A stretch of 64,000 bases of DNA from Phycisphaerae bacterium (GTDB lineage: Bacteria > Planctomycetota > Phycisphaerae > UBA1845): assembly GCA_020056715.1 (NCBI GenBank), contig JAGVHG010000140.1, forward strand, positions 5,039-69,038, written 5' to 3'. Positions 59,711 through 64,000 of this stretch are shown piece after piece; position 1 is the stretch's first letter; each line of letters begins with the position of its first letter. Under the pieces are notes generated by a model, which saw only the letters and a list, made by a program, of their open reading frames with translations, ran no database searches and was not told where the DNA came from. The translations under genes and the position numbers were made by a program.

Positions 59711-60307
59711 ATGCACACTGCGAGTGACACTTCCACGACGAGCGACCTGGGCGGCTATGAAGTTCTCGTCTGCGTCTGCGGCGGGATCGCGGCCTACAAG
59801 GTCTGCGAGGTCGTCTCTAAGCTGGTGCAACGCGGCGCGGGCGTGACCGTGGCCATGACCCGCTCGGCCAAGAAGTTCGTCGGCCCCACGACGTTTCAGG
59901 CCCTAACCGGTCGCCGCGTGCTTACCGACTTGTGGTCCGCTGCCGACCCTAACGACGTGCAGCACATCGCCCTCACCGGCGTCGCCGACCTTGTGCTCAT
60001 CGCCCCCGCGACGGCCAACATCATCGGCAAGATCGCCTCCGGCATCGCCGACGACGTGGTGACAACCCTTGTCATCAGCGCCGCCTCGCCGGTGGTCCTC
60101 GCCCCGGCCATGAATGACCGCATGTGGGCCAACCCCATCGTGCAAAGCAACGTCGCCAAGCTCAAACAACACGGCTTCACGATGGTCGGCCCCGGCGAAG
60201 GCTGGCTCGCCTGCCGCAGCATCGGCCCAGGCCGAATGGCCGAACCAACCGAAATCCTCGAAACCATCGCCGCAAAGCTAAAGTCCCACCCGTCGAAAAA
60301 TACGTAG
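59711..60307 (+). CDS. coaC: Phosphopantothenoylcysteine decarboxylase (stand-alone CoaC)
   Basis: GGIAAYK, HI.L, APATAN, PAMN..MW and LAC...G.GRMAEP. Confidence 0.92.
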   Translation: MHTASDTSTTSDLGGYEVLVCVCGGIAAYKVCEVVSKLVQRGAGVTVAMTRSAKKFVGPTTFQALTGRRVLTDLWSAADPNDVQHIALTGVADLVLIAPATANIIGKIASGIADDVVTTLVISAASPVVLAPAMNDRMWANPIVQSNVAKLKQHGFTMVGPGEGWLACRSIGPGRMAEPTEILETIAAKLKSHPSKNT

Positions 60308-60316
60308 ATCGGATCA

Positions 60317-60370
60317 CTGGTGCGAGAATCCTTTCTCGCACCCACCTTCGCGGGAATCCCTTCCCGCGAA
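60317..60370 (+). repeat. Double-hairpin REP (left flank of RAYT)
   Basis: CT-GGTGCGAGAA-TCCT-TTCTCGCACC-CACC-TTCGCGGGAA-TCCC-TTCCCGCGAA. Confidence 0.9.
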
Positions 60371-60377
60371 TCCGGAA

Positions 60378-60911
60378 TCAGAGTTCCAGTACATCCATCT
60401 CCAGGCACACGCCGCTGCGTCCAGCGTACCAGCCGGCCGAGCTGTACCACCAATCCTCGGGGTCGGCGATGAGCCCCTTGCGGACCGGGTTCTCGTGTAA
60501 ATAGCGCAGCTTCTGTTCAAACACGCGGCGCGAGCGGATCGCCTGCGGGTGAAAGCCGTCCTGCCAGAAGGAGAACTCGCCGCGCTCACGGCGGGCCCGT
60601 TGGGCGGCGCGTTCGAGCCACGCGAGGATCGTGTCTCTGTCGTCGGCGACGAGTCGTTCGTGGATCGTGCGCGACGTGAACCGTTTGAAGTCGCGCATCA
60701 TCGCGTGGAGATCGTCGGCCGCGGCGATGCAGTGCAGGTGGTTGGGCATGACTACGAACCCGAAGAGCTGCAAACCCTTTTTCGTCCGGCAAAACGATAA
60801 AGACTCGATCAGCGGGTCAATGAAACGGGCGTCGATGAAGACCGGGATCCAGTCCAGGATCGTGATCGTGCAGAAGTGGGGGAGGTACTCGCCAGCCTGA
60901 TAACGGGGCAT
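60378..60911 (-). mobile_element. REP-associated tyrosine transposase (RAYT/TnpA-REP, IS200/IS605 Y1 HUH family)
   Basis: HFCT.T..DWIPVF, FVVMPNHLH (HUH), DFKRFTS, FWQDGFH, YLHENPVRKGL...PEDW.YSS; flanked by inverted REPs. Confidence 0.92.
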
Positions 60912-60937
60912 GTCCGTCAGGGTATCGTCCGCGATTG

Positions 60938-61029
60938 TTCGCGGGAAGGGATTCCCGACGCTTTGGGTGCGAGAAGGGATTCTCGCACCAGCGACATGAC
61001 CGGCTAGTGCGAGAAGCCCTTCTCGCACC
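60938..61029. repeat. REP cluster right of RAYT (inverted double hairpin plus single hairpin)
   Basis: 60938-60991 is an inverted copy of 60317-60370; 61004-61029 reads CTAGTGCGAGAAGCCCTTCTCGCACC. Confidence 0.9.
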
Positions 61030-61088
61030 ACGACAGCAATCGACAATCGACACTTGTCCTGATCTTCGAAGGAATCGACAATACGTCC

Positions 61089-61715
61089 ATGCGTCTTCTG
61101 GTGACAGCCGGTCCGACGCGGGAGTTTTTCGACTCCGTGCGTTTCATCTCCAATCCGTCCAGCGGAAAGATGGGCTATGCGATCGCCGCCCAGGCCGCGA
61201 GGCGGGGCTGGAAGGTTGACCTCATCTCCGGTCCGGTGGAACTGCCGGCGCCGAAGGGCGTCAAGGTGACACGCGTTGTCACTGCCCAGGAGATGTTCGA
61301 CGCCGCGACCGTCCTGTTTCCCCGCTGCCAAGCGGCGGTGATGACCGCGGCGGTTTGCGACTACCGGCCCGCAACGCGGCTCGATCGCAAGCTAAAAAAA
61401 AGCAACCGCCCGCGTTCCCTTCGACTCCTGCCCACCCCCGACATCGCCGCGCACCTGGGGAAGAGTAAGGGTGACCGGATCGTGATCGGGTTCGCCATGG
61501 AGGACCACGACGCCCATCGCCACGCGGAGGCCAAGCTACGCCGCAAGCGATGCGACGTCATCGTCCTCAACGGACCGGCCAACGTCGGCGGCGACCAAGC
61601 CACGGTGGAAATCTTCCGGACGGCAAGCGGATGGGATCCCCCCGTGGCCGGTAGCAAAACCCGGATCGCAGAGCTAGTGGTCGATCTCGTCCAGCTTCTA
61701 GCCGTGCCAGTTTGA
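61089..61715 (+). CDS. coaB: Phosphopantothenate-cysteine ligase (stand-alone CoaB)
   Basis: LVTAGPTRE..D.VRFISN.SSGKMG, AAVCDY, GFAME and K..RK.CD.IVLN. Confidence 0.92.
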   Translation: MRLLVTAGPTREFFDSVRFISNPSSGKMGYAIAAQAARRGWKVDLISGPVELPAPKGVKVTRVVTAQEMFDAATVLFPRCQAAVMTAAVCDYRPATRLDRKLKKSNRPRSLRLLPTPDIAAHLGKSKGDRIVIGFAMEDHDAHRHAEAKLRRKRCDVIVLNGPANVGGDQATVEIFRTASGWDPPVAGSKTRIAELVVDLVQLLAVPV

Positions 61716-62166: not shown

Positions 62167-62194
62167 TTGACATGCGTTGGCCGATTCCTACAAT
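62167..62194 (+). promoter_or_regulatory. Near-consensus sigma70 promoter upstream of the surface protein gene
   Basis: TTGACA-16 nt-TACAAT. Confidence 0.6.
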
Positions 62195-62548
62195 GCCCGC
62201 CGTAGCTGTTGCAGTTTGCGTCCATCGTGGCTATAAGGACGCGCGTGAGGCAACGCAAATGGAGGCCGTCGTTCCGAAGCTGGCGCGTATCGGGGCGAAT
62301 AGGGCCGCCAAGTCGGATGGTGTTGTTGAAGGATCCGGAAGCGGCTTGGGCGCGGGACGCTTCGTAACGGTGATGTAGGCAGTACCGGTTTTTGTTTCCG
62401 AGGGTTTGGCGATTTCTACCGCACGCATTCTGTATCGCTGGTGTGCGGGGTCGTCTGATCGTCGGTGTTTTGTGAAATGTTAAGTTTGGAAACCAATCGC
62501 GTGTAACACGGTTCACGCCACAGTCCTTTTATTGGGAGGTCAATGGTA

Positions 62549-64000
62549 ATGCTAGGTTCAAACGTATTCGGTGTAACGACATTCCGCACGCGGACGCGTG
62601 CTATGTCCCGCGTGGCCACGCTCTGTGGCATGTTCGGAATGCTAATGTTCAGCATGGGGGCGCAATGCATCACTAAACCCGTCGCGTGCACGACGGACGC
62701 GGACTGCGTGCAGACGGATGCGTGCCGGACAGGCACCTGCGGCACGGGCGGAACCTGCGATGTGGCGGACGTCTCATGCCCGGAGGGGCAGGATTGCGAC
62801 GGTGGGACTTGCAAGACTCCATGCACCGCAGATACGGTTTGCAATGACGCCGACGGCTGCACGGTTGATGTGTGCGGCACCGATGGCTTCTGCGGCACGT
62901 CAGGCGCTACGGATTGTGACGACGCCGACGCCTGCACGACCGACGGCTGTGTTGCGGCCACGGGCTGCACGCACACGGACGTCGATTGCGACGACAATGT
63001 CGCCTGCACCGATGACGCCTGCGCCGACGGAACGTGCAGCCACAGCGACAACTGCGCTGCGGGCGAACAGTGCAATGCGACCACCGGCGCGTGCGATGCG
63101 CTTTGCGCGGTGGACGCCGATTGCGACGACGCCACATTCTGCAACGGTGCCGAGACCTGCAGCGCGGACGGCATCTGCGTAGCGGGCACCGATCCCTGCA
63201 CGGACAACGGGGTGTTCTGCGATGGTACCGAGAGCTGCGATGTAGCGACTGATGCGTGCGTTTCTTCGGGCGACCCATGCGCCGTTGGAACGACTTGCGA
63301 CGAAGCCACCGCTGCCTGCCTGACGGAAGTGGCCTGCACGCTTGACGCGGACTGCGACGACGGGCTGTTCTGCAACGGTGCCGAGACGTGCGTCATTCCG
63401 GTCGACGCGACGGAGGGCGTCTGCGCCGACGGTACCCGTCCGTGCGACGACACCGACGCGGACGCCAACGTCATCACCTGCGATGCGGGCGCGGCTCAGT
63501 CCTGCGACGAGGGCGACATTGCGGCGGTCTGCACGAACTGCCCGGGCGAAACCCGCAACTTCACGCTGGAAGTTGACACGCTGACCGGTAGCACGAGCGA
63601 TGATACCTTCTTGGCGCCGACCGCCCTCACGGGGTTGGGTGCCCAGACCGCTACACTCCAGAACGGTGACTCGGCCAATGGGTTGGCAGGAGCTGACGTG
63701 TTGACGGCTTATCTCGTCAACGGCGGTGCAGCTCTGACCATCGCCCCCACCCTTGCGGGTATCGAGACGTTCAACTTCACGGATTACTCCACGACCTTCA
63801 CGACGACCATTATCGCTGATGCCATCACTGGAGCGGCGACCATCAACCTGACTGGCGGGTTGAATGACACTGCCGACGGCTTCAGCATCAATAACCTACC
63901 GTCGGTTGTGAATGTTGGTATGACGAACACGTCGGAGGACTTCGAGTTGGTGTATACTTCCGCGGCCGCTTCCGGGGCCAGCAATTCGATGATCCTGACG
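62549..64000 (+). CDS. Large surface lipoprotein: Cys-rich repeats followed by an RsaA-like S-layer domain (3' truncated by window edge)
   Basis: Absent from the ORF track because it has no stop in the window. GGGAGG RBS; ...MFSMGAQC lipobox-like; CDD..ACT.D.C and [12 protein letters not shown] repeats; then [19 protein letters not shown]...[17 protein letters not shown]...[12 protein letters not shown]. Confidence 0.85.

Follow-up and report, generated by a model that had tools for sequence, protein, structure and literature searches.

RsaA from Caulobacter crescentus is the best-understood surface-layer (S-layer) protein of Gram-negative bacteria. In the parts of the published accounts available, it is described as lacking a signal peptide, being exported by the type I system RsaDEF, binding the O-antigen of lipopolysaccharide (LPS) through its N-terminal domain and folding with extracellular Ca2+; the accessible section of a review regards its assembly and attachment domains as separable modules. 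For planctomycetes, the available text of a 2025 paper on Kolteria names the strain studied there as the only non-anammox member with an S-layer-like structure and states that Kustd1514 of Kuenenia has no homologues elsewhere; these proposed proteinaceous outer layers, that of Kuenenia and that of Kolteria novifilia, belong to the same phylum as the organism considered here, and the corresponding passages do not mention an RsaA-type protein. The terms 'planctomyc', 'lipoprotein' and 'lipid anchor' are absent from a 2025 S-layer review in the Journal of Biological Chemistry (JBC), the open-access literature yielded nothing on an RsaA-type protein in planctomycetes or with a lipoprotein signal, and the open-access papers on 'RsaA-like' proteins or an 'RsaA homologue' among the matches listed concern methanotrophs. 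Here we analyse a gene at the end of a 64,000-nucleotide stretch of the genome of a Phycisphaerae bacterium (hereafter the window; G000:C76:5039-69038, on a contig that continues past it), the product of which joins an N-terminal hydrophobic signal and a Cys-rich acidic region to a C-terminal domain of RsaA type. We lean towards reading it as a Sec-exported, stalk-mounted, Ca2+-dependent coat protein, which would make it a candidate for an S-layer protein whose anchor and secretion route have both been swapped.

The open reading frame (ORF) opens on the + strand at window position 62543, contains no stop up to position 64000 and crosses the window edge, as had been described in an earlier note made from the window. 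The remainder of the gene was recovered from the contig, on which the frame extends for 548 further codons to C76:70685, 1,647 nt past the window end, for a total of 1,034 residues. Residue numbers are counted from the upstream ATG at 62543; a start at 62549 gives 1,032 residues, close to the 1,026 of RsaA. The product comprises an Arg-rich hydrophobic signal and a conserved additional cysteine (C42), followed by an acidic region of 285 residues that contains 46 Cys and by a 700-residue region with a single Cys. Because this layout recurs in 16 aligned homologues and in 12 ORFs from 10 related genomes, it is not attributable to chance.

The composition changes sharply at 334|335, where an abrupt transition to T/G/A-rich sequence had already been noticed: residues 335-1034 contain 16.4% A, 15.4% T and 12.9% G, and their only cysteine, C724, lies outside the window. 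A phmmer search against all Protein Data Bank (PDB) chains returned RsaA as the sole match, at E 0.0072 and with a strong compositional bias; in the first block of the alignment, residue 335 is paired with the opening residue of chain 5n97, which is the crystal construct of RsaA 249-1026. A database search with residues 335-1034 retrieved 166 homologues at E <= 1e-3, and a profile built from 65 homologues matched four RsaA sequences in the PDB with E 1.4e-45 to 3.4e-39 over ~500 profile positions (PDB entries of RsaA include 5n8p, 5n97, 6p5t and 6z7p). The next profile matches were the repeats-in-toxin (RTX) domain of CyaA (4.6e-32, via eight short stretches) and lipases and serralysins (~1e-15), these non-RsaA scores being high because of the RTX repeats. 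A search for related loci with a nine-row alignment gave 75 loci from cyanobacteria, proteobacteria and others, nearly all via the RTX nonapeptide pattern, and was uninformative as to taxonomy or architecture.

The C-terminal domain was modelled with AlphaFold2 from the 65-sequence alignment, yielding a predicted local-distance difference test score (pLDDT) of 89.6 and a predicted template-modelling score (pTM) of 0.86. When this model was compared with the PDB in Foldseek, as the earlier note had advised, the top six matches were all RsaA (E 7.8e-14 to 9.8e-10, ~890 alignment columns) and the seventh was at 1.9e-3; the TM-score to RsaA was just 0.37-0.42, as expected of a long two-armed molecule. 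Superposition with VIA-align gave Z-scores of 23.5 (root-mean-square deviation, rmsd, 5.1; 493 aligned), 23.1 (rmsd 6.7; 527 aligned) and 22.8 against RsaA at 24% identity, the second alignment placing model positions 9-699 on RsaA 257-1023, compared with Z 13.6 for the best non-RsaA fold and Z 11-13 for matches to the RTX part. Because of these profile, model and alignment matches, the homology covers the whole assembly domain from RsaA's own boundary, residue 335 here and 249 in RsaA, and residues 335-1034 are, on sequence and predicted fold, a true homologue of the entire L-shaped beta-helix/beta-roll. The likeness to the lattice-forming region that had been proposed from its first residues is thus stronger than first seen and extends over all 700. 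As in RsaA, the domain is acidic, nearly free of Cys and equipped with RTX-type Ca2+ motifs, namely GGxGxD at 598, 619 and 854, which make it a putative calcium-binding domain; the HemolysinCabind model scored 21.2 bits in the target (cut-off 23) and was over cut-off in eight of the 10 homologues scanned.

RsaA starts with its LPS-binding domain, whereas residues 1-334 here hold a predicted Sec signal, the conserved Cys and a stalk with 46 Cys. The stalk cysteines lie across residues 49-333 with a spacing of 4-12 residues, and the repeats quoted in the earlier note were all found, CDDxxACTxDxC at residues 125 and 149 and a second 14-letter motif at 193 and 270. Leaving out the conserved first Cys, the number of stalk cysteines is even in 14 of 16 aligned rows (46 here, 24-50 in the other even rows), so that this first Cys is not needed for pairing. 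In Pfam, Dicty_CTDC (PF00526) reached 22.5 bits at residues 124-146, under its 27-bit gathering threshold, and 24.7 bits, likewise sub-threshold, in homologue P0007; several homologues carry a precomputed PF00526 label, and the second repeat type, DCDDxxFCNGxExC, had no match among the library models searched. The stalk model, computed from a 16-sequence alignment and of only moderate confidence (pLDDT 72.5, pTM 0.35), consists of a helix across the signal stretch followed by a string of short hairpins. Its PDB matches were weak, the best being the Cys-rich region of the Entamoeba Gal/GalNAc lectin (E 9.9e-4, probability 0.57), followed by arrays of epidermal growth factor (EGF)-like modules and knottins. 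Searches of the ESM Atlas gave scores of 0.76-0.81, with the nearest clusters (0.79-0.81) carrying PF00526, to be taken as leads only. The stalk would thus share small hairpin modules with Dicty_CTDC and EGF-like arrays, and we infer from the model a rod of small disulfide-bonded modules. Judged by the alignments, this predicted rod takes the place of the LPS-binding N-terminal domain of RsaA exactly at the domain boundary.

The hydrophobic signal with the sequence GAQC was present as previously described. The first Cys past the hydrophobic core (alignment column 55) is a Cys in all 14 rows having an N-terminus, and the residue that precedes it (position -1) is Gly in nine of the 14 homologues; it is Gln in the target, Pro in P0003 and P0016, Thr in P0011 and Asn in P0056. 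The Cys is followed by Ile in the target and by Pro in nine of the 14, with no Asp after it. Of the 18 Cys-rich proteins scanned, seven passed a PROSITE-style lipobox rule, [LVI][ASTVI][GAS]-C; one more match, in P0056, was not counted, its Cys sitting inside the hydrophobic stretch. Lipoboxes of the Gly-Cys-Pro type are present in relatives, and the family resembles lipoproteins, but the target and its three nearest sub-family members carry an insertion of 2-5 residues (two in the target) that breaks the lipobox. In a search of the genome for the lipoprotein-processing enzymes, an Lgt-like match (101 + 34 bits within one 404-aa frame, cut-off 118.9) and an LspA-like match (49.6 bits, cut-off 73.95) were found, which appear to be divergent homologues that fall under the curated cut-offs.

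No type I system, for which a search had been suggested, was detectable over cut-off in the genome, which is 98% complete. The best HlyD-type match reached 51.9 bits against a cut-off of 208.65, and the two best ATP-binding cassette (ABC) exporters scored highest as MsbA and stayed under the cut-off of every type I model (PrtD, HlyB and LssB). The best PrtD-type match reached 250.9 bits against a cut-off of 510, which is a weak test in that the control gave none over cut-off, Caulobacter included; because of this failed control, the absence of a type I system rests mainly on HlyD and the NCBIfam scan. Among 41 genomes, i.e. that of the target and 40 relatives, the gene was present in 17 and an HlyD-type match over cut-off in a single one (G024). 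No secretion or anchoring partner adjoins the gene at the locus, and no conserved partner gene was found in 10 related loci besides the upstream coaC/coaB.

Four secretin genes over the Pfam cut-off were found in the genome, and type II secretion is a possible candidate route. The S-layer proteins VapA and AhsA of Aeromonas and the lipoprotein pullulanase (PulA) travel via Sec and then type II secretion, which also places lipid-anchored proteins such as MtrC and OmcA of Shewanella on the surface. These systems are precedents for the route only, and its use by the present protein would follow by analogy.

The C-terminal domain is single-copy in the genome. Sampling of 201 genomes from the organism's order detected it at E <= 1e-10 in 43, distributed by family as 26/47 in f1, to which the organism belongs, 5/5 in f5, 10/35 in f7, 1/1 in f8, 0/48 in f2 and 0/48 in f6, and in none of 300 sampled genomes elsewhere in the phylum, with three candidates per genome scored. 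On this sampling, the family is confined to one order; where homologues carry a name, it is 'Planctomycetes bacterium' or 'Phycisphaerae bacterium'. The search for the same architecture in related genomes, another step proposed beforehand, returned a Cys-rich front and a Cys-poor rear in all 12 ORFs from 10 genomes, nine of them with a hydrophobic stretch ending in Cys, and the gene follows coaC/coaB in at least seven of these 10 genomes, as it does in the target. The target is 31-41% identical to its orthologues, compared with mostly 55-72%, and in one case 43%, for the syntenic neighbours; this fast divergence fits an exposed protein.

The front of the protein varies more than the rear. One strain with 96% identity in the C-terminal domain has stalk residues ~42-175, i.e. 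the membrane-near half, replaced, and the same replacement is found in a public groundwater contig. Public DNA runs hold near-identical fragments in groundwater and sediment metagenomes, as well as a ~94%-like strain with the stalk-coding part replaced; a single public RNA run (X13) gave short pieces only, of 90-95% likeness, none of them over the C-terminal domain. In its remoter homologues, the C-terminal domain is preceded by different front ends, namely thrombospondin-type 3 repeats with PKD, PKD alone, DUF4214 and Big_5/CopC, and a few of these homologues were named 'S-layer protein' by JGI. By sequence comparison, the rear module stays the same while the front one can be exchanged.

In the working that we propose, the protein would cross the inner membrane via Sec by means of a signal ending in the conserved cysteine, with what would be a lipobox in most relatives and a degraded one in the target. 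The ~285-residue acidic region would be oxidised in the periplasm to a rigid rod with 23 predicted disulfides, and the protein would then reach the surface without type I secretion, the candidate route being type II. There, the RsaA-like domains would self-assemble with Ca2+ into a coat, which the rod would space from the membrane and which would be tethered by an N-terminal lipid or by some other contact of the rod. The earlier proposal that the anchoring module had been exchanged for a Sec signal plus a disulfide stalk is supported by the start of the RsaA alignment at residue 335 and by the lack of a detectable type I system. A further-reaching version, in which one Phycisphaerae-type order builds a true crystalline layer of RsaA type with Sec export, a 23-disulfide stalk, a lipid or stalk tether in place of LPS binding and a type II-like passage, is plausible and held only tentatively. 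A prediction of a two-copy complex of C-terminal-domain residues 1-500 scored 0.00, which speaks neither for nor against self-association.

Several points weigh against a stalk-mounted coat protein. An RsaA fold alone, here a predicted one, does not establish a lattice, given that RTX beta-rolls also occur in enzymes, toxins and adhesins, and no Pfam or NCBIfam family scored over cut-off on the full protein. Codon adaptation, computed with 31 ribosomal, EF-Tu and EF-G genes as reference, did not mark the gene out as highly expressed, with a rank at the 64th percentile among 2,588 crude ORFs; the test is low-powered here because the reference genes themselves reach only the 77th percentile (median). 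A folded protein of ~100 kDa would, moreover, have to pass the outer membrane. At its extreme C-terminus the protein has a D-L-L-I-Y that is conserved among the aligned homologues and resembles the acidic and hydrophobic terminus of proteases secreted by type I systems; this end could serve as a structural cap or be what remains of a signal. At the opposite end, the target reads S-M-G-A-Q-C and fails the lipobox rule, and the three sub-family members closest to it have Pro or Thr at -1. Because of the Gln at -1 and the failed rule, the target may instead be cut by signal peptidase I or kept as a membrane anchor. The description of the protein as lipid-anchored consequently holds better for the family, with its invariant Cys, its frequent Gly at -1 and its members that pass the rule, than for this copy, for which a lipid anchor is doubtful.

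In the strongest competing reading, which we rate as unlikely and yet to be taken seriously, the protein would be a surface adhesin or matrix protein that binds calcium, with an RsaA-type fold in a monomeric or fibrillar coat without a regular lattice, like other surface proteins of RTX type. RTX beta-roll domains serve many roles, and the PDB neighbours of the domain include proteases, lipases, alginate epimerases and CyaA; the patchy occurrence even within the organism's own family would suit an accessory surface protein, as would the three tandem copies in one genome, the unremarkable codon usage and the presence of like Cys repeats beside other domains elsewhere in the genome, which suggests a general display stalk. 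This reading is opposed by the extent of the RsaA match, which spans the whole assembly domain at Z 23 when the RTX part alone gives Z 11-13, by the domain boundary shared with RsaA and by the single copy of the gene in the genome.

A lesser chance is given to retention in the envelope, where an uncleaved signal or a lipid would hold the protein at the inner membrane or at the inner face of the outer membrane as a periplasmic scaffold. The degraded lipobox agrees with this, since the hydrophobic N-terminus may persist as an anchor; no outer-membrane export partner is conserved beside the gene in the 10 related loci, and the periplasm permits both disulfides and Ca2+ binding. The missing Asp after the Cys argues the other way, as in Escherichia coli inner-membrane retention is not favoured without it, and so does divergence faster than that of the syntenic neighbours, together with a mosaic stalk, both more typical of exposed proteins. 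In the available parts of the literature, moreover, the characterised RsaA-type proteins are all extracellular.

Export of the protein as a type I substrate like RsaA, the N-terminal hydrophobic stretch then not being a working Sec signal, is very improbable. Conservation extends over the C-terminal ~110 residues, past the RTX motifs, and this stretch aligns to the C-terminus of RsaA, and the terminal acidic residue with its four hydrophobic residues is, as we presume, reminiscent of type I signals. Against these stand the sub-threshold PrtD (a weak test, as stated), HlyB, LssB and HlyD matches, the single relative with an HlyD-type match, and the 46 Cys in an acidic repeat, which point to folding in an oxidising compartment and not to storage in the cytoplasm.

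The family is a natural test case for S-layer modularity, in which the assembly module was kept while attachment and, apparently, secretion were handed to other parts. The lattice known for RsaA would be a predicted one in the present family. In the further-reaching version with a true crystalline layer, the family would represent a natural swap of anchor and secretion route with retention of the lattice domain, by a route undescribed for the RsaA fold, and the first S-layer assigned to a gene outside anammox planctomycetes. At present the gene is a concrete candidate for encoding an outer coat of protein in a group where, according to the available text of the Kolteria paper, S-layer-like structures have been reported for anammox members and one Kolteria strain only. 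Possible uses are as an RsaA-type display scaffold that travels via Sec and, for the stalk, as a rigid disulfide-bonded spacer with a defined length. Should no lattice form, the RsaA fold would be in use outside S-layers.

Coordinates of the features of the gene are listed in the following table.

Table. Features of the gene, in window positions and in residues counted from the ATG at 62543
Feature	Position	Strand	Residues	Remarks
Promoter-like site TTGACA-16-TACAAT (11/12)	62167..62194 (L009:205-232)	+		Consensus match
Shine-Dalgarno-like GGGAGG	62535..62540	+		8 nt upstream of ATG 62549; read from the sequence
Predicted signal peptide	62549..62665	+	3-41	n-region with four Arg, 17-residue hydrophobic core
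Cys42	62666..62668	+	42	Aligned with the lipobox cysteine of homologues; preceded here by Gly-Ala-Gln
Predicted acidic Cys-rich stalk	62669..63544	+	43-334	46 Cys, 17.5% Asp, net charge -56; Dicty_CTDC-like and FCNGxExC-type repeats
RsaA-type assembly domain	63545..64000 in window; whole to C76:70685	+	335-486 in window; whole 335-1034	RTX motifs 598, 619, 854

With respect to the start site, the second in-frame ATG, at 62549, is preferred over the first because the nearest homologues begin with MLGS..., with which the N-terminus of the target aligns; it is likely the better choice and would give the 1,032-residue protein. The database entry for the same protein (P0002) was called from Met35, a start that would delete the signal and is disfavoured by the N-termini of the homologues. 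The sigma-70-like site upstream would imply a 5' leader of ~350 nt. Since the region contains three promoter-like sites compared with 1.3 +/- 1.2 in shuffles, it is to be taken as a mere consensus match with a presumed function. No T-tailed terminator was found after the stop in a terminator scan, which returned just an 11-nt inverted repeat spanning the stop.

Upstream, coaC (Flavoprotein) and coaB (DFP) occupy window positions 59711-61715 as separate ORFs ~780 nt apart. The opposite-strand ORF between them has a weak match to an IS200-like Y1 transposase (21.5 bits, cut-off 23), and this insertion looks strain-specific because the two halves lie ~100 nt apart in a relative (L139). Between coaB and the gene are ~830 nt without a convincing ORF. 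Downstream, ~1.3 kb with small ORFs (L009:3686-4987; C76:70686-71987) precede a MiaB-like gene on the opposite strand; they include a 70-aa ORF, which we take to resemble a HicB-type antitoxin, and two related ORFs of 77 and 88 aa. The contig of a related strain skips L009:3697-4545, so that this block varies between strains. Beyond the MiaB-like gene and a methyltransferase, 4 kb downstream of the gene and on its strand, lies a 373-aa ATPase of the T2SSE family and of PilT-like size (L009:7832-8953; C76:74832-75953), which is not conserved beside the orthologues examined. In five of the 10 related genomes, the contig ends before the downstream flank is complete (L135, L136, L138, L140 and L144; G012, G021, G355, G405 and G425), in the first three of these loci at most ~0.6 kb from the orthologous gene, which suggests strain heterogeneity or assembly-breaking repeats.

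In one related genome, three tandem paralogues of 917, 832 and 911 aa were found (L142; G491:C1:2815767-2824617), each with a signal ending in Gly/Ala-Cys-Asn and a Cys-rich front. In the genome of the target, the same Cys repeats occur beside other domains in at least nine other large ORFs (C112:8037-9272 and C148:25080-26975, and on C89, C180, C4, C79, C85 and C24), and may thus constitute a general display stalk of this organism. Two such ORFs, of 412 and 632 aa, open with a canonical lipobox followed by Pro (…MAGCP and …VMGCP). A further ORF on the - strand, of 3,197 aa (G000:C49:8311-17901), is filled with like Cys repeats, which average ~8 Cys in every 50 residues along a stretch of more than 2,000, and terminates in ...PTVSEWGLVIMTLLLL...GRR, which we presume to be similar to a sorting tail of the IPTL-CTERM/PEP-CTERM type.

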